Origin: Candidatus Omnitrophota bacterium
Lineage (GTDB): Bacteria > Omnitrophota > Gorgyraeia > JABMRN01 > RBG-13-46-9
Direction: 5' to 3'
DNA length: 49,885 nucleotides
Assembly (NCBI GenBank): GCA_013203315.1
Contig: JABMQJ010000005.1
Location: 1 to 49,885, forward strand
The position numbers were made by a program, and so were the translations under genes. The notes beneath the pieces are model-generated. The model searched no databases. It was not told the DNA's origin and worked only from the letters and a program-made list of their open reading frames with translations. Shown here in pieces: positions 1,481 through 18,100 of this stretch (position 1 is the first letter of the stretch; every line of letters starts with the position of its first letter).

Positions 1481-2371
1481 TTATTTATTTCTTGCCAAGT
1501 TGGGCTGCTGATAGAAAACGATAGCATTCTCAATCCAGCCATCCGTATGTGTTGCATCTTCAATTATAATAATCTGGGCACACGCGGGATTGCCGGCTGA
1601 ATCCACGAAGCTCTCCGCGACAGTGCGCGGAATGATCCTGTCTTTTGCGGCGACAAAATGTCGTTGCGGAAGTGCCTTTAGTAGATATGCTTCATCGATA
1701 GGGTTTAAAGAGTTTGTCATGGGGGACACATTGTGATATTTACTCACGGCTTCAGAATCCAGGTTACCGGCAATAGTCGTTAAACTTAAAACGTCCTGAC
1801 GCCTTGAGGCGATCAACGCCGCTATGGCGGCGCCGCCGGAATATCCTATAAGATTTATTCCTTCGGACCGCGAAATATTCAAAAGATCGTCAATGGCCCG
1901 ATTCATCGATTCCACAACAGTGTTTGAAAAACGGCTATCTGACCAATATACAGGATCGCACGCGGGATAACCCCTATCGGCATATTGACCGGGCCTGGCA
2001 ATATAGGCTACATTTAGAGATGGGTCTCGTGAAGCAAGTTTTAAAACAAGCGGATTTCGCGGTGTTGGGTCCTTTGAAAGGCGTCTCCTTGTTTCCCAGG
2101 CGGCTCCATCACCTTCGATATATACCGTTAAAGGTTTACCGGGTAGGTCAAAACGATAATAAGACGTAAGCGTAAAAGGATCTGTTTCTATAAATGTTTT
2201 TTTTAATTTGGCTTCGGAGGCGATTTTATCGGCTCCTGAATAGCGGCCGTTAAAACAGGCTCTGGTTGCGCAACCAGAGCCTGTGATCAAAAAAAACAGA
2301 AAAAAAACTCCTATGAGGTTTTTGATAAAATTGCTTCTTCGGGTTTTATCCACGCATGCCTTAGAAATCAT
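1481..2371 (-). CDS. alpha/beta hydrolase, probable lipoprotein
   Basis: GYSGG nucleophile elbow, VYIEGDG motif, C-terminal Asp/His (KDRII, ATHTDGW), hydrophobic stretch ending ITGSGC (lipobox-like). The true start may be slightly downstream. Confidence 0.8.
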   Translation of the reverse strand: MISKACVDKTRRSNFIKNLIGVFFLFFLITGSGCATRACFNGRYSGADKIASEAKLKKTFIETDPFTLTSYYRFDLPGKPLTVYIEGDGAAWETRRRLSKDPTPRNPLVLKLASRDPSLNVAYIARPGQYADRGYPACDPVYWSDSRFSNTVVESMNRAIDDLLNISRSEGINLIGYSGGAAIAALIASRRQDVLSLTTIAGNLDSEAVSKYHNVSPMTNSLNPIDEAYLLKALPQRHFVAAKDRIIPRTVAESFVDSAGNPACAQIIIIEDATHTDGWIENAIVFYQQPNLARNK

Positions 2372-5300
2372 ATTTTACAGTTACAACACCTGAATGACCG
2401 ACCAAATCTCTCCTGAGCTGGCAATCATAACTGGCCGTTATGGAAACACCTAAATCCGTGTCCAATGAAAGCGATGCTCCGAGATCATGGGTATTTCGAT
2501 CGGGCCTGACTCCATATGTATCAAATGCTGTGCCTCCGCCTTCGTAAGTATTTCCAATTGATTGCTGCATCTTGCCTACAAAATCATGCAGCCATACCCA
2601 ACGAAATTCGGGCGTTACCTCATATCGTGACAATTTCAAGGGATAATTAACTTTAACGCCCACGCCGGATTGCACGAGATCGTAGTCCTGGCTGCCAATA
2701 TTAAGATTAAGCGCGCCTGCTTCGGTTTCTTTGTAGGCGTTCAGATGTAAGTGCATATACTGCATGGATCCTATAGGAGTGATTTCAAGCCCCTTCCCCT
2801 TGTTAAATGTATATCCCATGCCGAGGTATCCTGAATATTGCTGGCCATAATAATCCGAATTTGCCGTACGCCAAGCGTTCGCAATTCTAATGTTTCTCTT
2901 GCCAAGATATTTGTTAAGAGCAAAACTAAATGCGGCATCAAAATAAAGAGAATTCCAGTCATAGGTCCCGTACGTTGTCACCTGTGAGCTGTGAATTATT
3001 GTGCGATTGTTTTTGTTCTTTGAATTCACATAGCCGTTTACATAGCCGCCGCTTAATCCTACTTTCGAATTATGAGAAATTATCTCTCTATCTGCCCCGG
3101 CTGTAACCCCCCATAAGGCCGCTTTGTAACCGTCTATGCCGTTACTGCTATATTGATGCAGATAATTACCGAATCCTTCGCCCCAAATTTCTATGCCTTT
3201 TTTTGTTTCATCGCCTGTCGAGATTCCGGTTCTTGCCGTATTCTTTGCCAGTCTCACAACGCTCAAGCGCCTTTCAACGGTATTAATTGACTGATTCAGT
3301 GCCGAATAGCTCGCCTGAATCGTACCATTATCTACCGACGGATAATAAGTCGCCACGCTTGCGCCTATTTCACTCGCAGGAGAAGCTTCCAGGGTATTCA
3401 AAATATTAAGCATATCAGCCGTGGCATTAGGATCCGCACCTGCTGCTTCAAGCGCTGTTGCCGCAGCCGAGGCATCACTATCACCTAATGTTGAAGCTAT
3501 AGCAGCAAAAGAATTAGTACGGTTTGCAACTAATATAAGATCTCCTAACAACGAAGTTCCCGTAAATGTAACGAAGGTGCTGTTATCCGTTATTGACGGG
3601 ACGTTTACACCCCCGCCACCAGCTCCGTCAACGACCGTGTATGTTGTTCCGTCAGGTATAAAATCGCTGGTAACAGAAACGTTTACCGTACTTCCGGTAT
3701 TCACCACTGCATTGCCGGAGCCTACAACTTGGCCTGACGAAGTACCGGCTACGCCAAGCATAAGCGTTGTATTGTCGCCTTGCGTATAAACTCCGGATGC
3801 CCCGTCCAAAGTAAGCGTACTGGTTCCAATACTTAAAGTGCTTGTGTCGGCAAGAGTAAAATTACCGGTAATAGTCCTGTCAGCATTTACCGCGACCGTC
3901 GCCGCATTGTTAGCTGTGGTAGTGGTAGCGACAACGTCATGCCCAAGGGTAAATGTACCACCGTTTAGGTTAAGGGCCGCCAATCCAAAACCGGCAGCGC
4001 CGATAGTGCCGCCTGAAGTTGAAGTGCCAAGATAGGTTAATGTTCCCTGGTTGTTGGCGCTGGTTGTAACGGCCATGCTCGGTGACAGTCCGTCCGTAAC
4101 GTTTACTGTTCCGGTGCCTGAGAAAGTAAGCGCATCGCCTGTGGCAGAGGCATTCTGAATATTGAGCACACCCGCATTTACCGTGGTGGTCCCGGTGTAA
4201 GTGTTGGCGCCGGAAAGATTTGTTGTGCCTGCTGTGGTTTTGGTCAGGCCGCTGGCTCCGCCAAGTATGGCTGAAACATCGCCGGCCTGCATATCATAAT
4301 CCCCTTGGCTAATTAATGTGCCGCTAGTGCCGCTGATGGTACCGCCGGTCTGTTGAAGGATTATGACGGTTTCATCGAACGACTGAATGTTGAAAGTGCC
4401 GGAGCTTACGGCGACACTACTCCCATTCGCTATCTGGTCGGATGCCAGCAGCTTCGCAGTACCGCCTGCCACCGTTAGGTTGCCGTCGATCGCGCCAGCG
4501 GCTGCATTTAGGTCAAGCTCGCCCTCGCTTACCGTGGTGGTCCCGGTGTAAGTGTTAGCACCGGTTAAAGTGAGAGTGCCTGCGCCGTCTTTTGTGAGAG
4601 TGTTTGCGCCGGTGCCAATAATGCCTGATATAGTGGTATTGCCACCACCTCCAACTGTGAGACCAAAGGCACCGCCGGTCGCGCCGCTAAGTGTAAGAGT
4701 GCCGTCATCTGAGTTGATACGCGTAGCACTTCCTAGCGTTATATCCCCCGCCCAACTGTTATTGCCACTTATGTTCCTAAGCGCACCGGCGCCTTCAATA
4801 CCGGTGCCGTTTAAGGTTAATGCTTCGGCTCCTACTGTGATGTCTCCTTGAGTCTCAAGAGCTGCGCCATCCGTTACTGTAACGCCTCCTGCCGTGGTGC
4901 CTGTGGCAGTGGCCCTCCGAATATTGAGCACACCCGCACTTACCGTGGTAAGCCCGGTGTAACTGTTGCTACTGCCTATAGTGAAAGTGCCTGAGCCGTC
5001 TTTTGTGATAGTGCTTGCGCTGGGGGCAATACTAGATGAGCCAGCAATAGTGGTATTGCCACTGCCTCCTACTGTGAGAGCAAAGCCGTCGAGGAAGATG
5101 CTCACCCCGCTAAGTGTAAGAGTGCCGGAATCTGAGTTGATACGCGTAGCACTTCCTAGCGTTATCTGTCCTCCCCAATCGTTATCGCCACTTATGTTCC
5201 TAAGCGCACCGGCACCTTCGATACCGGTGCCATTTAAGGTTAATGCTTCGCCTCCTACTGCAATGCCTCCTTGAGTCTCAAGAGCCGCGCCATCCGCTAC

Positions 5301-6200
5301 TGTAGTACCCCAGGCCGTAGTGCCTGTGGCAGAGTCATTCCGGATATTGAGCACACCCGCATTTACCGTGGTGGCCGCGGTGTAGGTGTTGGCGCCGGAA
5401 AGAATCGTTGTGCCTGCTGTGGTCTTGGCCAGGCCGCTGGCCCCGCCAAGTATGGCTGAAACAGTGCCGGCCTGCATATTAAAATCCGAACTGCTGGTTA
5501 ATGTGCCGCTGGTGCCGCTGATGGTACCGCCGGTCTGTTCAAGTGACATGACCTTGTCATCGAACGACTGAATGTTGAAGGTGCCGGAGTTGACGACGAG
5601 GAACGCATCATCCGCTATCTGGGCGGATGCCAGCAGTTTCGCGGTACCGCCGGCCACCGTTAGGTCATCGGCGAGCGCACCACCGGCCGCATTTAGGTCA
5701 AGCTCGCCTGCGTTTACCGTGGTAAGTCCAGCGTAAGTGTTGACACCGGTTAAAGTAAGAGTTCCTGTGCCGTCTTTTGTAAGCCCACCCGCGCCACTAA
5801 GGGTCTGGCTAAGAGCGATACTTCCGGTGTTGGCTGTAAAGGTACGTGTGGCACCCATAATCATAGGGATATCGATCGTTTGGAGGCTGATACTATCGTT
5901 CGCGACGTTGCCGCCCAGCGTGATTCGGTTGCCTTCGAGCGTGAACGTGCTAGCGCCGGCATTAAAGGTGATGCCACCAAAATTCGTATCGGCGACAATG
6001 TCGTTGTTGGGCGTGAGTCTCGTAGCCCCGTCGAAAAACAATGCATCATTGGCAATGGGTGCTGCGCCGCCCCAGTTGTCGCCGGTATTCCAGTTATTAT
6101 TAAGCCCGCCGCCGTTCCAAGTTTTGTCTGCCGCAAAAGCTGTGGAGAAAAAAGAAAAGGCATATATAACCACTGTTGACACTGCTAATATTTTTCGCAC
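2361..6200 (-). CDS. Autotransporter (type Va) with autotransporter-associated beta-strand (PATR) repeats
   Basis: Signal peptide (AFA-A), repeated LTKxGxGTLTLxGxNTYTGxTTVxxGxL motifs, C-terminal beta-barrel (WGEGFG...VTVKYDF) ending in Phe. Confidence 0.92.
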   Translation of the reverse strand: MRKILAVSTVVIYAFSFFSTAFAADKTWNGGGLNNNWNTGDNWGGAAPIANDALFFDGATRLTPNNDIVADTNFGGITFNAGASTFTLEGNRITLGGNVANDSISLQTIDIPMIMGATRTFTANTGSIALSQTLSGAGGLTKDGTGTLTLTGVNTYAGLTTVNAGELDLNAAGGALADDLTVAGGTAKLLASAQIADDAFLVVNSGTFNIQSFDDKVMSLEQTGGTISGTSGTLTSSSDFNMQAGTVSAILGGASGLAKTTAGTTILSGANTYTAATTVNAGVLNIRNDSATGTTAWGTTVADGAALETQGGIAVGGEALTLNGTGIEGAGALRNISGDNDWGGQITLGSATRINSDSGTLTLSGVSIFLDGFALTVGGSGNTTIAGSSSIAPSASTITKDGSGTFTIGSSNSYTGLTTVSAGVLNIRRATATGTTAGGVTVTDGAALETQGDITVGAEALTLNGTGIEGAGALRNISGNNSWAGDITLGSATRINSDDGTLTLSGATGGAFGLTVGGGGNTTISGIIGTGANTLTKDGAGTLTLTGANTYTGTTTVSEGELDLNAAAGAIDGNLTVAGGTAKLLASDQIANGSSVAVSSGTFNIQSFDETVIILQQTGGTISGTSGTLISQGDYDMQAGDVSAILGGASGLTKTTAGTTNLSGANTYTGTTTVNAGVLNIQNASATGDALTFSGTGTVNVTDGLSPSMAVTTSANNQGTLTYLGTSTSGGTIGAAGFGLAALNLNGGTFTLGHDVVATTTTANNAATVAVNADRTITGNFTLADTSTLSIGTSTLTLDGASGVYTQGDNTTLMLGVAGTSSGQVVGSGNAVVNTGSTVNVSVTSDFIPDGTTYTVVDGAGGGGVNVPSITDNSTFVTFTGTSLLGDLILVANRTNSFAAIASTLGDSDASAAATALEAAGADPNATADMLNILNTLEASPASEIGASVATYYPSVDNGTIQASYSALNQSINTVERRLSVVRLAKNTARTGISTGDETKKGIEIWGEGFGNYLHQYSSNGIDGYKAALWGVTAGADREIISHNSKVGLSGGYVNGYVNSKNKNNRTIIHSSQVTTYGTYDWNSLYFDAAFSFALNKYLGKRNIRIANAWRTANSDYYGQQYSGYLGMGYTFNKGKGLEITPIGSMQYMHLHLNAYKETEAGALNLNIGSQDYDLVQSGVGVKVNYPLKLSRYEVTPEFRWVWLHDFVGKMQQSIGNTYEGGGTAFDTYGVRPDRNTHDLGASLSLDTDLGVSITASYDCQLRRDLVGHSGVVTVKYDF
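4155..5785 (-). repeat. Internal A-B-B'-A' duplications in the autotransporter passenger
   Basis: ~5340-5785 matches ~4155-4600 (GELDLNAA...QTGGTISGTSGTL...MQAG.VSAILGGASGL), and ~5045-5335 matches ~4630-4915 (DGAALETQG...EALTLNGTGIEGAGALRNISG...ITLGSATRINSD), with high nucleotide identity. Confidence 0.85.
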
Positions 6201-6331
6201 AAATTCCCTTTTATTATGATTTGGATATTATATTATCTACTATTAAGAGTATAGCGTATAAAATGCTCATACACAAATATTTTTTTTCTGCGTAGAACAA
6301 GCACAAGATGGTGTTTTTTGTTATCTGTATT

Positions 6332-7696
6332 TTAGAGGTGGTGGCGCTTTGTGTTGCCCCATATCTTCTTTTTTTCGAAGGCGAGGCGAAACGCTCCTAC
6401 AATGATAGGGTCAAATTGTGTGCCGGACTTTTCTTGAATCTCATTTATGGCAATTTCCGGAGATTTTCCGCGGCGGTAGGGTCTGTCTGTAGTCATGGCA
6501 TCGAATGCGTCACATACCGCGATTATCCTGGCCACAAGCGGTATTGCGCTACCCTTTAATTTTTCTGGATAACCGTTTCCGTCAAATTGCTCCTGGTGAT
6601 ACATGACTTCACGCACTACATCATTTAATTCCTTGATAGGTTTTAGAATAGTTGCGCCTATGGCGGGGTGTTCTTTAACTTTCTCAAATTCCTTCTTGGT
6701 AAGCTTGCCATGTTTATTCAGTATCTGGTCTGGAAGGCCTATTTTCCCGACATCATGCAAAAGAGCCGATATGTGTAAGGTTTCCCGAAAATTCTTATAG
6801 GCTTGAGCTTCCGGTATTACATCTAACTCATCGGCTACAGCGAGGCAATATTGAGTTACACGCTCTGTATGACCGTGCGTATAAGGATCTCTTGCGTCGA
6901 TGGCCGCCGCGAGTGCAATCGCGGTATGGACGAAGACGCGGTGCTCTCTTGTATATAAATCCTTGATTTCGTCGATCCGATATTGCAGGCTTTCGATAAG
7001 CTGGGCATTTGAAATCGCCATGGCCGCGTCATTGGCCAGCGTCATGAAAAAGCCTATCTCCTGCCGGGTGAATTTCTCCTTCGACATCTTATTGCCTAAA
7101 ACAAGAACGCCTATTAAACTCTTTTTGTAGTAAAGCGGTATACAGATATTTGCCTTCAGAAGGTCCATCTGCCTCAGGACAAGCTCTATTATTTCAGCAA
7201 GTTCCTCAAATTTCGCAAGCGATTCTTTATTTTTTAAAAGCGCAGCAATGTCTTCGTAGACTAAAACGCCGTTTTCCGAAATTACGTAATTTTTTCTTTC
7301 ATTAAAAATCTTAATAAGCGGATTCTCAAATGTCATGCGGATAAAGCCGACGGGAATTTTGACACCGCCCTCGCCTTTACTATCGATGAGGATAAATGAG
7401 TTTTTCTGTTCCTTATATAAGAGGATTGCGGTGTGCGTAATTCCGAGTTGTTCGTCAATGACATTTACGATCATTTTTATCAGGCGCTCGGGCTTTTTGA
7501 AGCGTATCATGAGCCTTGAGGCATTTTCCAGGAAAACCTGATAATCTTTTTCAGGTTTCGGCCACTTCTTTATGTCTTCGGGGTTTATAGGTATAAGTGC
7601 GCCTTCTGTGTCGTTTAGTTTATCTATCATCCACTGTTGAACTTTCGACCAGCCCCTGCGATTTTCGTCGCCGCTTTTTTTAAGCTCCCTATACAT
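6332..7696 (-). CDS. GAF + HD-GYP domain protein (cyclic-dinucleotide phosphodiesterase)
   Basis: ARDPYTHGHTERV, LLHDVGKIG, HQEQFDGNGYP, ARIIAVCDAFDAMTTDRPYR motifs; N-terminal GAF (GVLVLGNK...LANDAAMAISNA). Confidence 0.92.
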   Translation of the reverse strand: MYRELKKSGDENRRGWSKVQQWMIDKLNDTEGALIPINPEDIKKWPKPEKDYQVFLENASRLMIRFKKPERLIKMIVNVIDEQLGITHTAILLYKEQKNSFILIDSKGEGGVKIPVGFIRMTFENPLIKIFNERKNYVISENGVLVYEDIAALLKNKESLAKFEELAEIIELVLRQMDLLKANICIPLYYKKSLIGVLVLGNKMSKEKFTRQEIGFFMTLANDAAMAISNAQLIESLQYRIDEIKDLYTREHRVFVHTAIALAAAIDARDPYTHGHTERVTQYCLAVADELDVIPEAQAYKNFRETLHISALLHDVGKIGLPDQILNKHGKLTKKEFEKVKEHPAIGATILKPIKELNDVVREVMYHQEQFDGNGYPEKLKGSAIPLVARIIAVCDAFDAMTTDRPYRRGKSPEIAINEIQEKSGTQFDPIIVGAFRLAFEKKKIWGNTKRHHL

Positions 7697-8060
7697 TTTT
7701 ACCTTCTTTCACGTGTGCCTTAACTGCCGATTCTAGTTCCTCTAACACGAGTGGTTTTGTAATATATTTGGAGGCTCCTAATTTTTTTGCAGCTTCCATT
7801 TTATCCTGATCTTCGACGGCGCTTACCATTATTACTTTAACATTTTTATCTAGTTTTCTTATCCTCTCTAGGGTCTGGATACCGTCCATTTCCTTCATTT
7901 TAATGTCTAATAGTATTAAATCGGGTTTTTCTTTTCGTAGTATTCTTAATGCTTCGGAACCGCCCAGGGCCACAAAAACCCGGAAATTTCTTTCTTCAAA
8001 AAAATTCTTCACAAAATCGCAAATGTCTATTTCATCGTCAACAACAAGGATCTTTATCAT
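7689..8060 (-). CDS. Single-domain response regulator (receiver)
   Basis: ILVVDDE, DLILLDIKM, IMVSA, YITKP. Confidence 0.93.
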   Translation of the reverse strand: MIKILVVDDEIDICDFVKNFFEERNFRVFVALGGSEALRILRKEKPDLILLDIKMKEMDGIQTLERIRKLDKNVKVIMVSAVEDQDKMEAAKKLGASKYITKPLVLEELESAVKAHVKEGKNV

Positions 8061-8072
8061 ATCAGTGCCTCC

Positions 8073-8456
8073 TTAGAAGCTCTCGGAATATGCCTTATTG
8101 ACCAGTTCCTCCAACTCTCTTAATGAATTAAGTGGCTTGTCAAGATATCCATATGCGCCTGCGTTTTTCAGACGGGCTTTTGTTTTTCCTGCATCGTCAA
8201 AAGCGGTAACAAAGATCACCTTGGTTTTTGGTTGTTTGGATTTTACCATTGCCAATACCTCATCACCGCTTATACCCGGCATCTTTAGATCTAACACGAT
8301 TACATCGGGCTTTTTATCATTAATCAATTCTATCCCCTGCACGCCCTTGGATGCGGTATTTATTTCGTATCCACGAAGCTCAAAATACTCTTTAAGCATA
8401 CTCGTAAATTCTATTTCGTCATCTATCGCTACTATTTTTGGTTTTTTATCTGCCAT
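8073..8456 (-). CDS. Single-domain response regulator (receiver)
   Basis: IVAIDDE, DVIVLDLKMPGISG, IFVTAF, YLDKP. Confidence 0.93.
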   Translation of the reverse strand: MADKKPKIVAIDDEIEFTSMLKEYFELRGYEINTASKGVQGIELINDKKPDVIVLDLKMPGISGDEVLAMVKSKQPKTKVIFVTAFDDAGKTKARLKNAGAYGYLDKPLNSLRELEELVNKAYSESF

Positions 8457-8472
8457 TTGACTTACCTCTTTT

Positions 8473-10602
8473 TTACGCTTTTGATTTCACCTCGAGAGGA
8501 AATTCCAGCGTAAATGTCGTCCCTTCGCCTACCTTGCTTTTAACGGATATCTTGCCGTGGTTGCGTTCTACAACCTGGCGTACTATAAAAAGACCGAGCC
8601 CTGTTCCCTTGCCCGGATCCTTCGTAGTGTAGAATGGATTGAATATCTGTTCGAGTTTATTTTCAGGGATACCATGCCCTGTATCCTCGATATCTATGAA
8701 AATCTTATCGTCGGCTTGCCTTGCTTTTATAGTAATTTTGCCTCTCTCATTTATTGCCTGTGCCGCGTTACGAATCAAATTGAAGAATACTTCCTGAATT
8801 TGTTTTTTATCACCGGTAAGCAAAGGAAGGCTTTCTTCTATATCTTTTACAATGTCTACCTTATCTAGTTTTAATTCATAACCGACTAAAGCCAAAACTT
8901 CATCTATTTCATCTTTTACATTAATATTTGCAGAAATTATTCCCTTTGACGGCTTCGCAAAGCTAGAAAGCCTCTTTGTTATGGCGGTTGCCCTATCGGT
9001 CTCGTGTATAACCTTCCCCATAATGTTCTGGGCTTTTTCTAAAAGTTCTCCCTGTGATTTATCTTTATAAAGTCCGTCTTTTATGTTTAACAAAAAAGCC
9101 TCGCATTGACCCCTGGCAATTCCCAGCGGATTACAGATCTCGTGATTTATGCCAGCTGAGAGTGTTCCAATAACCGCCATTTTCTCTTTCTGAGCGGCCT
9201 CAGCCTGCGTCTTTCCTAATTCATCAAACATTTCAGCGTTATTAATTGCTATTGCAAGTGTTCGCGCCAGAGGAACAAGTATGTCCATGTCATCCTGCGT
9301 GTAATTCTCATCGGACTTCTTTTTCCCCAGGGTAAGTACGCCTACCATGTCCCCTTGTAATGTCATAAGCGGAATAGCGAGTTCAAACTTCAATCGATTC
9401 ATGTCTTCAATGATTTGTTGCGGCATATGCAATTCTTTTTCATGCGGCTTTATTGAAAGGTATGTCTTTGCTCTCGAGAGGAATGTTATAAGCGTATTCT
9501 CTTTCCCCAAAGCAATATTTCTTTCCGCTATACCTTGTGAAGCTACAAGGTCATACTTACCTTTATCTTCATCTAGAAGAAGAATTCCGCAGCTTTGGAG
9601 CTTCATAATATCTGAGAGCTTACTTACTGTTAACCGAACAAGTCTATTTAAGTCCAAAACGGTCAGAACTTCACTTGTAAACGTCTTCAGTAATTCTTTG
9701 TAGTTATATTTCTTTTGAAACAGGAATTTATCTGTTACGTTTATAAGGAAATTCTCGATTCTTCGCAGCGCTAGCATAATTATTATGCCACTTATTGTTA
9801 GGCCTATTACCTTTCCTCCGGTCCCCGTACCCCTAAATATATATTCCTGTATAACCAATGTTGGCAAAAGCAACATTGCGAACACCGAAGCCAAAAGACC
9901 CGCAAACACAAGGGTCTTCTTTATGATGACTTCGATGTCGAGTAATTTATACGCGACTATTGCGTAAGCAAACATGGCAACATAAATAAATCCTACAACG
10001 TTTAAATATGGAGGAAATGAAAGCTTGAAAAATAGCAAATAGTTACTTGAGCAACCCACATATCCTATAATCATTCCTATTAAAATATACGAGATTTGAC
10101 TTCTCAAAATACCTTCTGCTTTTCTAAATGAAGAATATAGCAACACACATGCATACACCGCATATCCGACAAACGTTATCAAGAATAAGTAATATAGCAT
10201 CCCTGCTGTACCCCAATATTTGAATATTGAAACAGGGCGCATATCTTTTATAAATAGTGGGCTAAATGAGAACGCCGTAAAGAATAATGCTATTAAATAT
10301 CCAAAATTTAATATCTTTTTCTTATTTAGTTTTAGGAAAGCGGTAACGAAATGCAAAAAACAAACAGGTATAAAAATTGCTCCGATATGTAGAACTCTAA
10401 ACCAGTAAAGACACGCTTCTTTATTACCTTGATTAAGTGGCCAAAAAATGTACCCGACACTCCATACGAAAACTGCCAAATTGAAAAGAGCATACCGCTG
10501 ATTTACCTCTGATTTTTTATTATGATAATAGACAAATAGGCCCAACGTTATTGCGGCAATTGCATTTATTAAACCTGTAATCGAAAAATAATAATAGTTC
10601 AT
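8473..10602 (-). CDS. Sensor histidine kinase: N-terminal multi-TM (HisKA_7TM-like) sensor, GAF, HisKA, HATPase_c
   Basis: About 9 hydrophobic segments in the first 280 aa, H-box AGINHEICNPL, N-box QVFFNLIRNA-like, G1 DTGHGI, F-box FNPFYTTK, G2 GTGLGL. Confidence 0.93.
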   Translation of the reverse strand: MNYYYFSITGLINAIAAITLGLFVYYHNKKSEVNQRYALFNLAVFVWSVGYIFWPLNQGNKEACLYWFRVLHIGAIFIPVCFLHFVTAFLKLNKKKILNFGYLIALFFTAFSFSPLFIKDMRPVSIFKYWGTAGMLYYLFLITFVGYAVYACVLLYSSFRKAEGILRSQISYILIGMIIGYVGCSSNYLLFFKLSFPPYLNVVGFIYVAMFAYAIVAYKLLDIEVIIKKTLVFAGLLASVFAMLLLPTLVIQEYIFRGTGTGGKVIGLTISGIIIMLALRRIENFLINVTDKFLFQKKYNYKELLKTFTSEVLTVLDLNRLVRLTVSKLSDIMKLQSCGILLLDEDKGKYDLVASQGIAERNIALGKENTLITFLSRAKTYLSIKPHEKELHMPQQIIEDMNRLKFELAIPLMTLQGDMVGVLTLGKKKSDENYTQDDMDILVPLARTLAIAINNAEMFDELGKTQAEAAQKEKMAVIGTLSAGINHEICNPLGIARGQCEAFLLNIKDGLYKDKSQGELLEKAQNIMGKVIHETDRATAITKRLSSFAKPSKGIISANINVKDEIDEVLALVGYELKLDKVDIVKDIEESLPLLTGDKKQIQEVFFNLIRNAAQAINERGKITIKARQADDKIFIDIEDTGHGIPENKLEQIFNPFYTTKDPGKGTGLGLFIVRQVVERNHGKISVKSKVGEGTTFTLEFPLEVKSKA

Positions 10603-10603
10603 A

Positions 10604-11833
10604 TTATTTTATCTTTTGCAAAATTGCTACTGAATCTTTACCATGAAAGGCAAAACTATTATTTAATATGGCGTTCACTTTTCCCTCTTCTGGTTTTGTA
10701 ACAACGCTTAGATTGTTACATTTGGGATCTATTACGCTAAAATTAATAACAGGTGGGATTATATTATGTTTTATCGAAAGCATAGAAGTAGCTAGCTGTA
10801 TTGCCCCTCCACCTGCTAATGCGTGGCCTACAGATGCCTTGATTGAAGTAGTCTTCATTTTTTTATTATCAAATATTTTTTTTATCGCCATTGCCTCAAA
10901 GATATCTGCCGTTACGCCCCCTAAGCCATGTGCATTTATATAGGTTATATCTTTTATATTCATTTTTGCATCTTTTAAGGCAGCTTTTATTGCCCTTGAG
11001 GCCTGTTCTGCATTTCGTTCATGATGAAGCATATTATGGGCCTCACACGTAGTGCTAACACCTGATACTTCGCTATAAATCTTTGCTTTTCGCTTTACTG
11101 CATGCGCATATTCTTCCACTACAAATACAGCCGCGCCTTCCCCTAATACCATGCCATCTCTATCGTTGCTAAATGGTCTGCATGCACCTGCTGGATCGCT
11201 ATTTTTCTGTGAAAGTATTCCAAGTGCGCTTAATGTTGCATAAGGAAGGGGGCACAATGGAGCATCCCCGCCTCCAACAAATACCACTTCTACATCGTTT
11301 GTTCTAATTTTCCGCAGAGCATATGCCAAAGCGCTATATACAGATGAGCAAGCCACGGAAAAAGTCTCACTAGGGCCTTTTGCACCTAATTCGACAGAGA
11401 CTTCGCCTGAATTAGCATTAGCTAATCCTATAGCAGCTGTAAACTTATGTATAGAATTTAAGCCTTTTTTAAATAAATTCATCTGTTGATCCAGAACCCA
11501 GGATAACCCTCCTAAAGCAGTGCCCATCATAACATGTACATGTTCGGCATTTTCTTTGTTTATAATAAATTGAGAGTCCTTCTGTGCCAATTTCGCTGCA
11601 CTTACTGTTAATTGTGTAGAGCGATCCATGGCTGAAGATCTGTGATTATTAATAAATTTAGTAGGTTCGAATTCTTTTATTTCTGCTGCCATCTTAGAAG
11701 GATAGTCTGATGTATCAAAAAAAGAAATCTCGGTAACGCCAGATTTACCTGCAATTAAATTTTGCCAATAATTTTCATGCCCTATCCCTAGTGGAGAAAT
11801 AATTCCTATACCTGTTATCACTGCTCTTCTCAT
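10604..11833 (-). CDS. FabF-like beta-ketoacyl-ACP synthase (ketosynthase)
   Basis: MRRAVITGIGIISPLG start, catalytic Cys (VACSS), His (INAHG), His (SIKASVGH), CRPF..RDGMVLGEGA, NSFAFHG. Divergent from housekeeping FabF. Confidence 0.88.
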   Translation of the reverse strand: MRRAVITGIGIISPLGIGHENYWQNLIAGKSGVTEISFFDTSDYPSKMAAEIKEFEPTKFINNHRSSAMDRSTQLTVSAAKLAQKDSQFIINKENAEHVHVMMGTALGGLSWVLDQQMNLFKKGLNSIHKFTAAIGLANANSGEVSVELGAKGPSETFSVACSSVYSALAYALRKIRTNDVEVVFVGGGDAPLCPLPYATLSALGILSQKNSDPAGACRPFSNDRDGMVLGEGAAVFVVEEYAHAVKRKAKIYSEVSGVSTTCEAHNMLHHERNAEQASRAIKAALKDAKMNIKDITYINAHGLGGVTADIFEAMAIKKIFDNKKMKTTSIKASVGHALAGGGAIQLATSMLSIKHNIIPPVINFSVIDPKCNNLSVVTKPEEGKVNAILNNSFAFHGKDSVAILQKIK

Positions 11834-11845
11834 AGTAAACCTATT

Positions 11846-12628
11846 TTACGCCTTCCTTCCAGTGCAATATTCATACATGCCCCACTGGTCAACGCTTATA
11901 ATGACATCTCTAAAATTTAAATTTATCATCATTTCACGCAAATACTCCGGGGTTCTAAAAAACATATTCCAGCTTTGTCCGTCTTGTTTTTTCCCTATCT
12001 TACTCATTAGTTTCTTGCTTGGGTTATCGCTTTGTGCTGTAAATAATATAAGTCCATTTTTTTCCAAGTGGCTGTATGCATCCTTCAACATGTCTTCAAA
12101 AGTAGCATCTGATAACATCTCAAAAAAACCTGTTGTAATAATTATGTTCGGTATCCATGAAATTCTTCTTGATAGCGCTTTTAGATGAGCTAATTTAAAA
12201 ACATTGGCTTTCGCATATCTGATAGGCCTTTTTCCAGCTAATGCTTTCCCGAAGTTAATAGAACGTTTGTCAGAATCGAGACATAGGACATCAATTTTAT
12301 CCTGATTATAGGTGGTAAGTACATCGACAATATAGCGAGCAGGACCGGAGGCAATATCTAATATCTTGCTTTTTTTATTTAACAGTATATTATTTGCTAT
12401 TTCATTTCGTAGGATTTTCATAATGATGTCTTTTTTGCGGCGAGTTGCTTTTACGGATGGCAGGTTTAATAATACACCATCAACAAATTTTCCGACGCGA
12501 GTAACGCCTTTTGGTCTATTCCTATACATATGATCTATATTAAGCCCGGAATCAGCTTTTCCACCTATAACATTTCTTCCCAATTTACTAATGGCCATTA
12601 TAGATTTTATAATTTTTTGAGTAATCAT
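11846..12628 (-). CDS. Class I SAM-dependent methyltransferase-like protein (resembles the YnbC C-terminal / Methyltransf_20 family)
   Basis: ILDIASGPARY motif I; N-terminal ADSG..IDHMYRNRPKG...GKFVD..LLN, recalled as typical of the YnbC-type domain; TGFFE motif. Confidence 0.72.
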   Translation of the reverse strand: MITQKIIKSIMAISKLGRNVIGGKADSGLNIDHMYRNRPKGVTRVGKFVDGVLLNLPSVKATRRKKDIIMKILRNEIANNILLNKKSKILDIASGPARYIVDVLTTYNQDKIDVLCLDSDKRSINFGKALAGKRPIRYAKANVFKLAHLKALSRRISWIPNIIITTGFFEMLSDATFEDMLKDAYSHLEKNGLILFTAQSDNPSKKLMSKIGKKQDGQSWNMFFRTPEYLREMMINLNFRDVIISVDQWGMYEYCTGRKA

Positions 12629-12629
12629 T

Positions 12630-13838
12630 TTATTTATAAAAAAACTTTTTTAGGCTTTTTAATAATCTGTCAATATCTTCTTTAGTGTGTTCGCTTGTTA
12701 TTTGAAATCTAATCCTGCAAGCATCTATTGGTACTGCCGGCGGTATTATAGGAATAGCTATAATACCTTCTTTCTTTAATAGCATGCTTAATTTGCACGT
12801 TCTATCCATTGATCCAATAATAAGTGGGATTATGGGTGTAATGTCCTCTGGTACAGGTAAATTTAAATTTATTAAATTTGTACGAAAATATATAACATTG
12901 TCTTTAAGTTTTTGGACATAAGTTTTGTTGTTCTTTATTTCCTGTAAAGACGTATGCGCAGCAGCCATCGACATAGCTGGTAAACTCGAAGTAAATATCA
13001 ATTCATGTGATTTCATCTTTATCAAATCTATATTTTTCCTTGATGAAAGTATATAGCCACCGTTTGAACCAAGTGATTTATTCATTGCGCCTGTTAAGAT
13101 ATGGATATCTTTTGCGGTTAAATTGCAATGTTCCAAAATCCCATATCCATTTTTGCCAATTGTTCCTAATCCATGAGCATCATCTACTACAAGAATTGCC
13201 TTATGCTCTTTGGCAATAGTGGCAATTTTGTTTATTTTTGCAATATTACCGTGTTGACTAAAAAGACTTTCTGTTATTATCATTTTTTTTATTGCATTAT
13301 CATGCATTTTTATTTTATTGTATAAATCATTAACATCGTTGTGTTCAAATTTTATTGATTCTATGCCATGGAGTTTAAAAGCTTTTATAAAACTTATATG
13401 TAAATATTTATCAAAAAACACCTTAACGTTATCTTCTGCAAATGCTGTTATGACTGCGCTATTCGCCATATATCCACTGGATAATACAATGCCAGCTTCA
13501 TAATTATAAAACTTTTTTAATGCATCTGCCAATAATTCATGATATAAAGTTCCGCCTGTAACTGCAAACGACGCACCTGTTCCTATGCCATATTTTTTTG
13601 CTGCCTCAATGGCGCTGTTAATAACTTTGCGGTTTTTTGATAGACCTAAATAATTGTTTGTACTAAAAAGGATATAATTCTTACCTTTCAAGCGAACCTC
13701 AACAGGTCTTGTGCCAGGTTCATAATAATCATAATAAAACCAGAGGTTTTCATTTTTTAATTTAGCGTATTGATTTAATAGCTCTTTTATCTTCTGCCAT
13801 TTATCTACGCCCTTGTGTACATTAGAAATTAGATTCAT
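12630..13838 (-). CDS. PLP-dependent alpha-oxoamine synthase family enzyme (BioF/Kbl/SPT/CqsA family)
   Basis: STNNYLGLS, SSGYMAN, FEHND, ESLFS.HG, VDDAHGLG, PLP lysine in GAMNKSLG, FTSSLP, PPAVP...RIRF. Confidence 0.9.
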   Translation of the reverse strand: MNLISNVHKGVDKWQKIKELLNQYAKLKNENLWFYYDYYEPGTRPVEVRLKGKNYILFSTNNYLGLSKNRKVINSAIEAAKKYGIGTGASFAVTGGTLYHELLADALKKFYNYEAGIVLSSGYMANSAVITAFAEDNVKVFFDKYLHISFIKAFKLHGIESIKFEHNDVNDLYNKIKMHDNAIKKMIITESLFSQHGNIAKINKIATIAKEHKAILVVDDAHGLGTIGKNGYGILEHCNLTAKDIHILTGAMNKSLGSNGGYILSSRKNIDLIKMKSHELIFTSSLPAMSMAAAHTSLQEIKNNKTYVQKLKDNVIYFRTNLINLNLPVPEDITPIIPLIIGSMDRTCKLSMLLKKEGIIAIPIIPPAVPIDACRIRFQITSEHTKEDIDRLLKSLKKFFYK

Positions 13839-13849
13839 TTAAAACCTCG

Positions 13850-14044
13850 TTACTTCTTATTTGACTTCTCTTTGTCCGTGATCCACTTGTCGACGCTTGT
13901 TTTTTTAAATCGCCACTTTGAACCTACCTTGAAACCGGGAATTTTACCCTCCTGGGCGTGTTTATAGATCGTAACTTTTTTCATCCGGAGGTATTTGGCG
14001 ATTTCGTCGAGGGTCATAAGAGTAGGTTTGTTATTTGGTACCAT
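13850..14044 (-). CDS. Small excisionase/MerR-like helix-turn-helix protein (HTH_17 type)
   Basis: LMTLDEIAKYLRMKKVTIYK...GKIPGFKVGSKWRF; AAGGAAGG SD. Confidence 0.9.
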   Translation of the reverse strand: MVPNNKPTLMTLDEIAKYLRMKKVTIYKHAQEGKIPGFKVGSKWRFKKTSVDKWITDKEKSNKK

Positions 14045-14120
14045 GCAACACCTTCCTTATGTTAATACTTTTTGTTATGCCTTAATATGCTATGATACAG
14101 GCTGATATGCAGAGATATAA

Positions 14121-14149
14121 AGTATACATAGTAAGTTGAAATTTGTCAA
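14121..14149 (-). promoter_or_regulatory. sigma70-type promoter of the HTH-synthase-kinase operon
   Basis: Minus strand TTGACA-17 nt-TATACT, ~75 nt upstream of the HTH start. Confidence 0.75.
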
Positions 14150-14165: not shown

Positions 14166-14420
14166 CTAGAGCAGGTTCCAGTAGGCGTTTGTTTCGGTAA
14201 GTATGAGGTCTGATGTGGTTTGGATTGTCTCGTTTTCGGTAAGTTCCTTGATAAAATTGCCTTTGGATATTACGTTTGACATGGCTTCCCGGCATTTAAA
14301 TGCATGGATCAGGGATTCAATCTCACCTATAGCCTTTTTATTGAACAATTCGACCATAAGGCGCGTCTTATTATGGCTTTTTCTTCCGGTTATTATTATA
14401 ATTTTCATACAGAACACCAC
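14166..14420 (-). CDS. Small hypothetical protein (start possibly 14408, MKIIIITG...)
   Basis: ORF only, fills an otherwise empty gap; no recognised motif. Confidence 0.35.
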   Translation of the reverse strand: MVFCMKIIIITGRKSHNKTRLMVELFNKKAIGEIESLIHAFKCREAMSNVISKGNFIKELTENETIQTTSDLILTETNAYWNLL

Positions 14421-14608: not shown

Positions 14609-15127
14609 ATGAAACGGCTTTCCTGGATAACTATATGTGTAGGTATATATATTATTATATCTGCCTCCTTTATGCTTCAATTCAGAGATTTCCTCGTAAG
14701 CACTATTGGCGATCAAGCGATGAAGCTTGGATTTTTCTTTATATTTCTGCTTCTTCTTCTAAATTATGCGCATTATATCATCTTAACAGGGCTACCGGCA
14801 TATAGAATCAGGCAGTCTATCTATGTTTTTGCGTTGGCTACTGTACTCATCCTGCTGCAGACATACTTTGCCGAGCGGTTGCATGTCATAGAATACGGGC
14901 TTTTGGGGTATCTTGCTTTAAGGGACTTTTCCGGGAAGGGATTGCGCGGTACAATATCCGATTGCATTAAACCCGCGCTTCTTTTTGTACTATGGGTTAG
15001 CATGCTAGATGAAGGATTCCAGTGGATTCTACCCTACAGGACCGGTGACATAAGGGATGTTATAACAAATATGGCAAGCGGCTTTTTAGGCGTGATTCAA
15101 TTCTCTATTTTCCGTGGTAGAAATTAA
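14609..15127 (+). CDS. VanZ-like family membrane protein
   Basis: ERLHVIEYGLLG, LDEGFQWILPYRTGDIRDVITN motifs; multiple TM segments. Confidence 0.8.
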   Translation: MKRLSWITICVGIYIIISASFMLQFRDFLVSTIGDQAMKLGFFFIFLLLLLNYAHYIILTGLPAYRIRQSIYVFALATVLILLQTYFAERLHVIEYGLLGYLALRDFSGKGLRGTISDCIKPALLFVLWVSMLDEGFQWILPYRTGDIRDVITNMASGFLGVIQFSIFRGRN

Positions 15128-15157: not shown

Positions 15158-18100
15158 TTAATAATCGATGATAGTGCCCGAGAACCAGTCTTTGATTTCC
15201 GCGTATTCTTCGTCGTCGATAACAAACCAGTCGTCTTCCCAGAAGAAACCACCCGCATAACCGTTATTTTTTAACGTGTTAAGCTTATAGGTAAACGAAG
15301 TCGGTTCCAGTTCGCCGGCAAGCACAGGCTTATCCAGTCCGAGATTTGCGGCCGGATAGTTAAGCGGCGTAAAGCCTTCGTGATTGTTGTAGTAATGGAA
15401 TTGGTATAAATCAAGCCCGCAATCCGTCCAGTAGGTAACAAGGTCATCCCTGTTTCTGCTTCCTACAGTCGTGACCGCATCGGGTGCCTTGGAATGAATC
15501 AAATCCACAAAGTCTCTCACAAAGTCCTGCCTGGACGGCATGGAAACAGCCGTCGCGTATTCAGGCTCGTTTATAATATCCCAGGCATATATCGAATCAT
15601 GCCCCGCAAATTGATCGAAGAAACCGTCAAATAAATCGAGAAGCGCCTGTTTTTTAGCAGGGTCCGTAAAGAGTCCGGGATGTTCGCCCACTTCATATTC
15701 CCCTTCAAAGCTCACGCCATCGGCTATGCCATAATCAAACAGTGTCGGCATGACTTTTATATTAAAAGCCTCTGCTGCATCTAAAAGGGCCTGCATATCT
15801 TCATAAACCTGGCCCGTAAAACCTAGCGGGGTTCCGGATGCGTCAAACCTAATACTTGACCGCAAATCGCAGAAGAGGAATAGTCTTACAAAGTCACCCT
15901 TTCGTGAATCGAGTTTCGTATAAAGCGCTTCTAAGTCTGTCGAATAGCCTATATGATATGTCGAACCCGGAACTAGCCCAAGGTCGTAACCATAATTCAT
16001 CCACGCCAGATTTACGCCTTTCAGGAAGCTCGTATCCGGTATTCTTCTTTGACGAAGAACGTTATCTGCGTCATAGATTTCAATTTCGCCGTTCGAGAGC
16101 GTCTTTACGGAACCCGTAAAAGTTCCGTTTTCATAATTGAAAACCGTAAACGTGCCGTCTGCTTCCGTATAGCTGTTTACAAGAAACGTAGTGCCGAACT
16201 TTTTATATGTCGCAACCCTGCCTACTGCATTTTCACCGACACAGTAACTATCGGAGACCCGGTTAATGCTTCCCGCGTCTACGGCGAGTGAGTTCACATA
16301 ATTATTAATCGTCTCGTATGCATCAATATCCCCGGGTGAACCCGTCAAAACAGTACTGGAAACGCCCGTCAGGAAACACGTGGGTAAGCCATCGGGATAA
16401 GTTAAAATTGCGCCATCCGGTTTTACTATTTCTTTTATCAGACTGTCATCGTCATATTTAACAACGTTAAAATACGGTTTGTTTTGACCGTCAAAGTCGT
16501 ATCCGGGAACAATCTCGCCGTTTGCACCGAACATGTTGCCCGGAAGTGTAATTGAAAAACCAAAATTAGGCGCTATGCCATTGACGATGTCGGTTACGCC
16601 ATCCGGAAATATAAGTGGCGCCCGGGGCGTATAAACGTATCCAGGCAAGGTTTTATTCATGTCACCTAGGATTGTGTTTTTATTTCGCATGTTTTCATCT
16701 ACGTCTTTATCGGATAGGGTTTCCACCGTACCGGTAGCATATTCATAAGTCTCCAGATTATCGTATGCCTCTGCCGTTATCTCGCCGCCGTTGATAGAAG
16801 ATACTATGCTCGGATCCCAGGAAATATTTTCCAGCGTGTAAATCGGATCCCCGGGGGCCTGGCCGTTTTCATACAGGTAAATACTGAGCGTACCGTCTTC
16901 TACTTTCGTTTTAACAATATAGGTGGTGTTATCATTTAAATTTACGTTAAGCGGGATTTGTCCATAAACAGACTCGTGTGTTTGGTAATCGTAGGACCGA
17001 TGATAAAAATACGCGGTACCGTTGTAATAGCTCAAGTTGATATATTCATACAAAATATCGGTTTGCCCTTGAACTTGGTAATAGAAAGATTTGGAAGCGG
17101 CGTTCCCGTCAAATGTAAACTCCGCGGTGTGAACAGGGGCGCCCTGCAAAGGGTTGTTATAGTCGGTGTAAAATCTCTTGGATTCGTTGTATTCGCCGCT
17201 TGAAGACGGATCTACCGCTAAACCGGCGTTCTGGCCGCTTATAGTAAAAAGTGGGTCCCATTCGGCGTCGGAGAGTGTATACGCAGGCGTACCCGGCCTT
17301 GGTTGGGAAGCTTCGTAAATATAGACGTTTACGTTCGAGCCTTCCCACAGGTATTCTATCGTGTAATCGGTATCTTTGTTTATCGTTATGTCTAATGCCT
17401 GGGTCTCGATTTCCCGCGCGCCGGTGGTGTAATCGTAGGAGTAGTAGGTCATTTTCGGTGTTTGGCCGCGTAGATTAAAAGTAAGATACACGTACCTATC
17501 GCCGGGTTCATAGTAATAAGCGTGCGCGTAGACGGAAGGATACGCTTTCGAGCTATCGAGATTAAGGCTCGCTTTCAGATAAGGATTGTTCGCACGATCT
17601 ACGCGCGAGGTGCCGCCATAACTCTGATAAAAATTTAAATAATTATATGAGAATCTTTTAGAAACCGCGAGATTCTGTTCATCGGTAATTCTGTATTCAA
17701 AATATATGGATGAGCCGTCGGGCAGAATTACTTTTTCGAGATTGCCGGTAAAATCGCCTGAATTGTAATAAATCAAAACGGAACCTGGCGGAAATGCGGG
17801 CGTTACGGATATGAGGTTTCCATCGGCGTCGTAAGCGTACTCGGTAACTTCGCCGTTGGGTTTTTCTTCTCTCACCAACCTGTTATCCGTATTGTATTTT
17901 TTTACTGTTCCGTCTGCCAGAATAAGTTCTTTAAAAATTAAATCCCCGTTTCCGTCATATAAATATGTAACCGTTTCATTCTCAGTTGCCCTTCTGCACA
18001 CCAACATATTTCCTGTCGCGTCATCGTATTCATACACTTCCGCATCAGCATATGCCTCTTGCGCTATTTCGCCGCCATATATAGTGGAAGAAAACGAGGG

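Follow-up and report, generated by a model that had tools for sequence, protein, structure and literature searches.

The window analysed here, a 49,885-nt stretch of Candidatus Omnitrophota contig JABMQJ010000005.1 (assembly GCA_013203315.1) from an uncultivated freshwater bacterium, contains an operon in which an alpha-oxoamine synthase (AOS), a methyltransferase (MT) and a FabF-like ketosynthase (KS) are encoded together with a seven-transmembrane (7TM) sensor kinase, two receivers and a GAF-HD-GYP protein. Across related genomes, comparisons of the kinases suggest that the enzyme cassette and the 7TM module are inherited jointly on an otherwise conserved signalling backbone. On balance, we consider it probable that the cassette makes a hydrophobic methylated acyl or aminoketone metabolite that is sensed by the 7TM domain, with hydrolysis of cyclic di-GMP (c-di-GMP) as the output.

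The eight co-directional open reading frames (ORFs) of this operon are packed closely on the minus strand between positions 6332 and 14044 (Table 1). Their spacings in transcription order are 11, 1, 12, 1, 16 and 12 nt, followed by an 8-nt overlap between the stop of the second receiver gene (REC2) and the start of the HD-GYP gene. Domains were assigned through Pfam and NCBIfam profile scans of the eight proteins, and these assignments together with the ORF coordinates bear out the gene order given in a preliminary description of this DNA. The same description reported no acyl carrier protein (ACP) in the operon, and with all gaps at or below 16 nt there is indeed no room for an ACP gene. The helix-turn-helix (HTH) protein, a small DNA-binding protein of excisionase/MerR-like type, scores 75.8 bits on a MAD1-like NCBIfam model (cut-off 80) and also matches TIGR01764. 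The promoter proposed for the operon fared less evenly: the TTGACA-17-TATACT element is present and is the best such site in the region, but promoter-like sites there number 32 against 30.7 in shuffled sequence, so the promoter is plausible rather than demonstrated. The source genome is a 1.5-Mb assembly, 97% complete, with a GC content of 0.43, and its named homologues put it in Omnitrophota.

Table 1. Positions and domain assignments of the operon features in the 49,885-nt window.
Feature	Positions	Strand	Description
Sigma-70-like promoter candidate, TTGACA-17-TATACT	14121-14149	-	11/12 match
HTH_17 protein	13850-14044	-	64 aa; first gene of operon; PF12728 60.8 bits
Alpha-oxoamine synthase (AOS)	12630-13838	-	402 aa; Aminotran_1_2 162.7 bits
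Methyltransferase (MT)	11846-12628	-	260 aa; PF12147/Methyltransf_20 106.5 bits
Ketosynthase (KS), FabF-like	10604-11833	-	409 aa; ketoacyl-synt + Ketoacyl-synt_C
Sensor kinase	8473-10602	-	709 aa; HisKA_7TM + GAF + HisKA + HATPase_c
7TM sensor module of kinase, residues 1-240	9883-10602	-	HisKA_7TM over residues 14-223
Linker, GAF, HisKA and HATPase_c parts of kinase	8473-9882	-	conserved backbone
Receiver 1 (REC1), single-domain	8073-8456	-	127 aa; Response_reg 88.2 bits
Receiver 2 (REC2), single-domain	7689-8060	-	123 aa; Response_reg 107.6 bits
GAF-HD-GYP protein	6332-7696	-	454 aa; HD_5 134.6 bits, GAF 36 bits

The association of enzymes with sensor is retained well beyond this genome. 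Homologues of the MT at 50-80% identity are named only in Omnitrophota records. A sample of the phylum has the MT in 26 of 401 genomes (21 of 282 genera), and the four other genomes of the same family lack it. We compared 36 MT loci (L010-L025 and L085-L104; L014 and L015 are near-identical, and L022 and L096 are one contig). In 32 of them a homologue of the operon kinase, aligned from its first dozen residues, is encoded on the strand of the MT, zero to five genes downstream. In the four loci without a sensor, the MT is truncated (L022 = L096, counted twice), stands at a contig end (L102) or is a Chloroflexi protein of 28% identity (L024). Among 27 sensors taken from MT loci, 23 match HisKA_7TM and 25 carry a kinase ATPase domain. 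The L011 and L018 sensors are 7TM-GAF-HD-GYP fusions that lack a kinase, which ties the sensor directly to HD-GYP output. The linkage is specific to the Omnitrophota-type MT, since the other operon genes were not found near 27 distant MT loci (Gastranaerophilales and other phyla; 24-35% identity), the sole exception being L033, where the opposite strand has a weak, partial match of kinase type. Homologues of the HTH protein occur in 14 of 48 related loci (BLAST, E ≤ 1e-8); those in L153, L158 and L160 head the operon (58-81% identical) and the L017 copy is 72% identical. The enzyme-kinase linkage claimed in the preliminary description therefore recurs in related genomes, and its view of the biosynthetic and signalling genes as one functional unit is supported by synteny, by mosaic kinases and by the two fusion loci.

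The mosaic structure of the kinases is seen by comparison with L160, a locus from the same family. There the HTH protein is 81%, REC1 74% and the HD-GYP protein 79% identical to those of the operon, whereas the cassette is wholly different (KS, thioester reductase, ketoreductase (KR), FabA, KS, FAD oxidase and nitroreductase). Identity of the kinase falls from 79% over residues 461-709 to 71% over residues 241-460 and to only 29% over the 7TM region (1-240). The sensor region of L016, which carries an AOS-MT cassette, is 62% identical to that of the operon kinase over ~290 aligned columns. In L019, the 7TM region is 49% identical to that of L087, which comes from a distant family and shares the KS-ACP-ECH-GDSL cassette of L019; its identity to the operon kinase is 35%. 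The kinase core of L019 is 63% identical to the operon kinase and 22% to L087. By these identities the L019 kinase is a clear mosaic.

Phylogenetic and compositional data were also compared with the cassette types. On a maximum-likelihood tree of the 7TM region with 29 rows, the cassette labels are accounted for by 6 changes (minimum 5; shuffled mean 17.6), and on one with 39 rows by 10 (minimum 7; shuffled mean 25.9). The MT tree puts L019 and L093 elsewhere than does the 7TM-region tree. GC content at third codon positions (GC3) agrees with a block model, the cassette and 7TM region being lowest (AOS 0.25, MT 0.31, KS 0.27, 7TM region 0.33); values are 0.39-0.40 for the rest of the kinase and REC1, 0.34 for REC2, 0.48 for the HD-GYP gene and 0.54 for the HTH gene. 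Taken together, these comparisons suggest that cassette and 7TM module are exchanged as one block, as is expected if the sensor detects the product of the enzymes. On this reading the conserved backbone comprises HTH_17, the kinase from about residue 240 on, two single-domain receivers and the GAF-HD-GYP protein, and the replaceable block a lipid-type cassette plus the 7TM module.

The composition of the cassette is less constant than its linkage. The preliminary description inferred that AOS, MT and KS together build a lipid signal, and here the earlier interpretation must be revised: the enzyme-kinase unit stands, but a fixed three-enzyme pathway is not supported. Only the MT is constant among MT-bearing cassettes, and the closest backbone relatives carry a two-KS/reductase cassette. 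AOS and KS are accessory parts of MT cassettes. An AOS is present in three MT-type cassettes, namely the operon here, L016 and L093, the last as an MT::AOS fusion (PF12147 + Aminotran_1_2 by Pfam); this threefold recurrence, once as a fusion, argues that AOS and MT act in one pathway. MT-KS cassettes are found at L013 and L017. A FabK-like NMO and a GDSL hydrolase adjoin the MT at eight loci (L011, L012, L014, L015, L018, L020, L021 and L023), and a GDSL hydrolase alone at L010. At L025 an MT::NMO fusion is accompanied by an aldehyde dehydrogenase. The MT occurs with a KS-ACP-crotonase-GDSL set at L019, L087, L090, L097, L099 and L101; at L102 the contig ends within this arrangement. An alpha/beta hydrolase accompanies the MT at L085 (Pfam-confirmed) and at L086 and L089 (BLAST matches), and at nine loci (L088, L091, L092, L094, L095, L098, L100, L103 and L104) the MT gene immediately precedes the kinase gene, an alpha/beta hydrolase being encoded at another place in the same stretch. 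A separate hydrolase accompanies the MT in most other cassettes. The partners of the MT are all acyl-chain enzymes, and they are tied together by the fusions MT::AOS (L093), MT::NMO (L025) and PilZ::MT (P0048, 1 of 70 MT homologues).

Genomes without an intact MT extend this picture. Twelve of the best 7TM-region matches from such genomes, including the same-family genomes G003, G002 and G009, were retrieved, and 8 of these 12 loci have a two-KS cassette directly upstream of the sensor kinase. The complete backbone (HTH, kinase, two receivers and HD-GYP) is present in the two-KS loci that are not cut by a contig end. By Pfam, the genes that lie between and behind the two KS genes of L160, L153 and L152 encode a NAD_binding_4 protein of thioester-reductase type, an SDR ketoreductase, a FabA-like dehydratase, an amine-oxidase-like flavoprotein and a nitroreductase. 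Some include extra genes: an ACP, a LuxD-like acyltransferase::methyltransferase (L153), or methyltransferases of ICMT-like and Methyltransf_11 type (L152). A distant MT (26-27% identical) adjoins the kinase at L154 and L163; L155 has no cassette, and the L161 stretch is too short to judge.

Several loci show further arrangements. The L153 protein (6313-7998) is a 561-aa fusion of a LuxD-like Acyl_transf_2 domain (acyltransferase/thioesterase) with a class I methyltransferase, encoded just before the kinase of the two-KS cassette. The truncated MT at L022 (= L096; G260:C22) has ~166 aa, is 68-69% identical, carries an in-frame TGA and has no kinase nearby; it is probably the remnant of a lost cassette, and at another locus (L152) the same genome still has the backbone with a two-KS cassette. 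Three genomes each contain two MT cassettes of different type (G080, L095 and L097; G131, L087 and L089; G225, L092 and L099), each with its own 7TM kinase and falling in different clades of the MT and sensor trees. At L014 (4833-9178), L015 and L025 (4640-8968), other 7TM kinases are preceded by a PlsC-like acyltransferase and a single 523-aa protein that combines SRPBCC/polyketide-cyclase and NAD-binding parts; this unit stands in tandem with the MT cassette, giving two enzyme-plus-sensor units per locus.

The class of the AOS was judged by hidden Markov model and PDB-structure scores against the BioF, Kbl, serine palmitoyltransferase (SPT) and CqsA/LqsA families. It falls below every NCBIfam equivalog cut-off, scoring 330.2 bits on bioF (cut-off 426.45), 270 on Kbl (460), 194.5 on the CqsA-type model NF005526 (428) and 272.8, 269.6 and 209.9 on the SPT models (500, 640 and 670, respectively). 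The nearest solved structures are SPT and ThAOS at 212 bits, compared with 101 bits for CqsA structures. The PLP-binding Lys254 and His222 are conserved, and the protein accordingly appears to be an active alpha-oxoamine synthase of a divergent lineage, whose substrate class the models do not assign. AOS homologues are common in the phylum (242 of 401 Omnitrophota genomes), but none is more than 40% identical to the operon AOS, the only close relative found being that of L016 (51%). Three specific assignments were considered. A CqsA/LqsA-type enzyme is rejected on the NF005526 and structure scores, and an SPT is not supported, its equivalog cut-offs being missed. BioF, or a biotin enzyme in general, is rejected because the protein is below the TIGR00858 cut-off, is the sole AOS of the source genome and is not accompanied by bioB or bioA. 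The best genome-wide scores were 25.8 bits for bioB (cut-off 225) and 228.9 bits for bioA (cut-off 405), in agreement with the earlier statement that no other bio genes are present; bioD was not searched.

The KS retains an intact Cys162/His302/His337 triad in the alignment, as had been reported, and the Cys-His-His-Lys residues are kept in all 10 cassette KSs examined. It scores 387 bits on the fabF model TIGR03150, below the cut-off of 493.75, while a FabF encoded on contig C17 scores 649 bits; a housekeeping FabF (KAS II) is therefore rejected for the cassette enzyme. The same split between cassette KS and housekeeping FabF is seen in 4 of 4 other genomes tested. Judging from these scores, the KS is a divergent extra paralogue of the housekeeping FabF. 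The preliminary description placed the housekeeping fab genes ~30 kb away, and this is correct for a FabD-like gene (43416-44360) but not for FabF, which sits on the other contig.

The MT is a predicted class I SAM-dependent methyltransferase and is the constant enzyme of MT-type cassettes. Its SAM motif D-x-A-S-G-P-A-R-Y is invariant in the alignment, and it matches no NCBIfam model (0 families), BioC included. Compared with solved structures through Foldseek, the AF2 model (pLDDT 88) matches small-molecule and polyketide synthase methyltransferases, including the CurJ C-MT and AprA MT2; the top match is an uncharacterised Bordetella protein (3ocj), and no specific function can be read from it. 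An MT profile searched against the sequences of solved structures gave nothing below E = 0.5, the Protein Atlas lists only unnamed PF12147 clusters for the MT, and a literature search on PF12147/Methyltransf_20 found no paper. In tblastn searches of plasmid records, the distant relatives are YnbC-like hydrolase::methyltransferase fusions at 24-26% identity; only YnbC-like proteins were returned, with no Ralstonia match. The role of the MT could be PhcB-like, forming a methyl ester on a released acid, or could equally be BioC-like, capping a carboxylate during chain elongation. Both fit because the pairing of hydrolase and MT recurs in most cassettes.

The signalling proteins are likewise intact in their motifs. 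The kinase scores 62.3 bits against PF16927 (HisKA_7TM; cut-off 28.6) and contains the H-box (GINHEICNPL) and the N, G1 and G2 boxes. Both receivers keep the acidic pocket, acceptor Asp, Thr/Ser and Lys. The GAF-HD-GYP protein has LLHDVGK and DGNGYP motifs and is a predicted c-di-GMP phosphodiesterase. The available portions of PMC5847659 state no ligand for HisKA_7TM, and a literature search on this domain returned only census and review papers, with no ligand stated in the portions available. The source genome encodes a second HisKA_7TM kinase (L105; contig C2:28621-30591) that is 24% identical to the operon kinase. A histone-deacetylase-family gene lies directly upstream of it and AMMECR1 shortly downstream, and lipid enzymes are not found there.

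In the signalling model that we favor, the KS would tailor an acyl-ACP drawn from fatty-acid synthesis, and the AOS would condense the acyl thioester with an amino acid to give an alpha-amino ketone. A hydrolase being absent here, the AOS could also release the chain by Claisen condensation. The MT would methylate the intermediate or the product. We infer that the resulting hydrophobic compound is the ligand of the matching 7TM domain; it would set kinase activity, and phosphate would pass to the two receivers. One receiver, probably the translationally coupled REC2, would then control the GAF-HD-GYP enzyme and hence the c-di-GMP level. FadL/TodX-like ORFs occur in 5 of the 48 related loci by BLAST, two of them Pfam-confirmed (L018 and L100), and such channels offer a possible route for a hydrophobic molecule across the outer membrane. 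These channels, the patchy strain-level distribution and the presence of two cassette types within single genomes argue for a product that leaves the cytoplasm or acts between cells. More tentatively, we propose that the backbone accepts interchangeable blocks that serve as private channels, and that the version with AOS, PF12147 MT and KS makes a methylated acyl amino-ketone autoinducer that lowers c-di-GMP. With cassette and matching 7TM module forming one block, strains would thereby swap signal and receptor in one recombination event.

A number of observations weigh against this signalling model. Homologues of the 7TM region are present in 186 of 401 Omnitrophota genomes, compared with 26 of 401 for the MT, and the sensor therefore does not require a PF12147 MT. 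Sensor and cassette do not always go together: the 7TM region of L152, a locus with a two-KS cassette, is 51% identical to that of the operon kinase, and the L025 sensor groups with two-KS sensors. The clustering on the trees also overstates independence, because related genomes share labels. The operon lacks the hydrolase that most MT cassettes carry, and its chemistry may differ for that reason. The HD-GYP protein, whose N-terminal domain is GAF, lacks a built-in receiver domain, which leaves the step from receiver to HD-GYP enzyme unproven. The PilZ::MT fusion would fit control of the enzyme by c-di-GMP and not the reverse. Export of the product from the cell is a supposition of the model. 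Lastly, the sequencing runs listed for the region are DNA only (a freshwater metagenome study that may be the source of this DNA, with small shares elsewhere), with no RNA run among them.

The alternative that best survives these data, although we judge it unlikely, is cell-autonomous lipid homeostasis or remodelling, in which the enzymes produce or alter a lipid of the membrane, such as an amino lipid, a methylated lipid or a sphingoid-like base, and either the kinase reads the state of the membrane or c-di-GMP controls the enzymes, with no intercellular signal. The nearest solved relatives of the AOS include bacterial SPTs, although the SPT equivalog models are missed widely (273 against 500 bits, and worse). 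The relatives of the PF12147 MT include the YnbC-like fusions, and YnbC itself is encoded in an operon predicted to serve phospholipids. Elsewhere in the phylum, 7TM kinases adjoin a PlsC-like acyltransferase and a SRPBCC lipid-binding-type protein, the PilZ::MT fusion suggests c-di-GMP control of the enzyme, and sensing of a membrane-resident product would also lead to co-variation of 7TM module and cassette. A core membrane-lipid pathway is nonetheless unlikely. The MT is patchily distributed (26 of 401 genomes, and none of four in the same family), close relatives carry other cassettes on the same backbone, and two cassette types coexist within single genomes (G080, G131 and G225), all of which typify variable signalling or secondary-metabolite loci. 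The FadL-type channels adjoining several cassettes also speak against a purely internal role.

Those same channels would suit a second alternative, that the 7TM kinase responds to a lipid or hydrocarbon-like molecule taken up from outside, which the enzymes modify, detoxify or assimilate, as would the GDSL or alpha/beta hydrolases found with the MT in most loci and the aldehyde dehydrogenase of L025. We regard an exogenous compound as quite improbable. A KS with a decarboxylative triad, ACP, KR, FabA-type dehydratase and AOS are chain-building rather than catabolic, and by Pfam the eight proteins of the operon include no hydrolase, transporter or oxidative enzyme. Chance adjacency of a housekeeping BioF, a housekeeping FabF and an unrelated methyltransferase to a two-component system, as the best NCBIfam models (bioF, 330 bits; fabF, 388 bits) might imply, is barely credible, given that both scores are below their cut-offs (426 and 494), that bioB and bioA were not found, that the true FabF is elsewhere, that the enzyme-sensor linkage recurs so widely and that the genes are joined by 1-16-nt gaps and one overlap.

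The comparison with lipid-signal systems drawn in the preliminary description is apt, and the favored signalling model can be placed among them. In operon logic, the closest analogue is phcBSRQ of Ralstonia solanacearum, in which, according to PMC11960443 and PMC6989110, the methyltransferase PhcB yields methyl 3-hydroxymyristate/palmitate, PhcS is the kinase, and PhcR and PhcQ are receivers. Compared by gene composition and not by PhcB or PhcS sequence, the two share a SAM-dependent methyltransferase, a sensor kinase and two receiver proteins in one operon, and many Omnitrophota loci have the order MT-kinase-REC(-REC). The phc signal is lipid-derived and methylated. The systems differ in that the MT is joined here by AOS and KS, that the sensor is a HisKA_7TM-GAF kinase and that the output gene encodes GAF-HD-GYP with no LysR gene in the operon, the phc output being the LysR regulator PhcA; the host is also an Omnitrophota bacterium and not one of the Betaproteobacteria.

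The Rpf/DSF system of Xanthomonas, with the crotonase synthase RpfF, the kinase RpfC and the REC-HD-GYP protein RpfG, couples a fatty-acid-derived signal to c-di-GMP hydrolysis by HD-GYP. The operon resembles it in having a membrane kinase and an HD-GYP (HD_5) protein, and sibling cassettes carry a crotonase and a hydrolase (the KS-ACP-crotonase-GDSL loci). None of the eight operon proteins matches ECH_1, however, so an RpfF-type crotonase is lacking; the HD-GYP domain is joined to GAF, with the receivers as separate genes in place of an RpfG-type fusion, and the kinase lacks the REC and HPt domains of a hybrid kinase. With the alpha-hydroxyketone systems CqsA/CqsS of Vibrio and LqsA/LqsS of Legionella the operon shares an AOS-family PLP enzyme beside a multi-pass membrane kinase, and their product class (acyl plus amino acid to amino or hydroxy ketone) is plausible here. 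It departs from them in that the AOS is accessory and the MT constant, and in that the AOS fails the CqsA/LqsA-type model.

Two further comparisons concern the chemistry. The BioC-BioH-BioF route to pimeloyl-ACP and KAPA uses a methyltransferase, fatty-acid elongation, an esterase and an AOS. Across the Omnitrophota cassettes, MT, KS, enoyl-reductase-like NMO, esterase-type hydrolase and AOS are all represented, and the MT could serve to "disguise" the carboxylate as a methyl ester while the chain is elongated. Against a biotin route, the MT is not BioC by NCBIfam, the AOS is below the bioF cut-off, bioB and bioA were not found, and the genes lie within a signalling operon. Escherichia coli YnbC, a bifunctional alpha/beta hydrolase and methyltransferase, belongs to the same Pfam family, PF12147, and most Omnitrophota cassettes likewise pair a hydrolase with the MT, but in separate genes. 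The L153 fusion echoes the hydrolase::MT layout, with an MT domain from other Pfam families. The identity to YnbC is low, the operon has no hydrolase, and YnbC itself has no assigned function.

By these comparisons, the operon would belong with systems that combine a signal synthase and its cognate two-component system, and its unusual feature would be the joint exchange of cassette and 7TM module. Within the interchangeable-block proposal, and with the same reserve, the version that combines AOS, PF12147 methyltransferase and KS may be so far undescribed. Among the titles listed in a literature search on Omnitrophota and quorum sensing, none was found on such a system.

The DNA on both sides of the operon contains other features. 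Just before the promoter-like site is an 84-aa ORF (14166-14420) that matches no family, and directly upstream of the operon are genes for a 1776-aa RHS-repeat protein (15158-20488) and a divergent VanZ-like protein (14609-15127). Downstream, the 3' end of the HD-GYP gene is present a second time, as a direct repeat of ~93 nt (1367-1459 and 6326-6417; halves 94% and 84% identical). Between the two copies lies a 4.96-kb segment with a 1279-aa autotransporter (2361-6200; GC 0.51, with PATR repeats) and, at 1481-2371, a weak alpha/beta-hydrolase-like gene. The segment resembles an insertion behind the operon, accompanied by target duplication. The gene at 1481-2371 was considered as the missing cassette hydrolase and rejected, as it has no similarity to the cassette hydrolases. 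The passenger domain of the autotransporter (4137-5805) contains long direct repeats, with units of 105-290 nt that are 62-87% identical and spaced 351-423 and 1185 nt apart.

Omnitrophota are a widespread uncultivated phylum of very small cells, and if the signalling model is true the operon would be their first candidate system for chemical signalling between cells or for chemical self-sensing. It would provide a testable ligand class for the HisKA_7TM sensor domain and a function for the uncharacterised PF12147 methyltransferase family. The system is compact, with three enzymes, one kinase, two receivers and one phosphodiesterase, and is therefore suited to heterologous reconstitution. Block exchange of the cassette with the membrane module of the kinase would mean that signal and receptor specificity diversify together.

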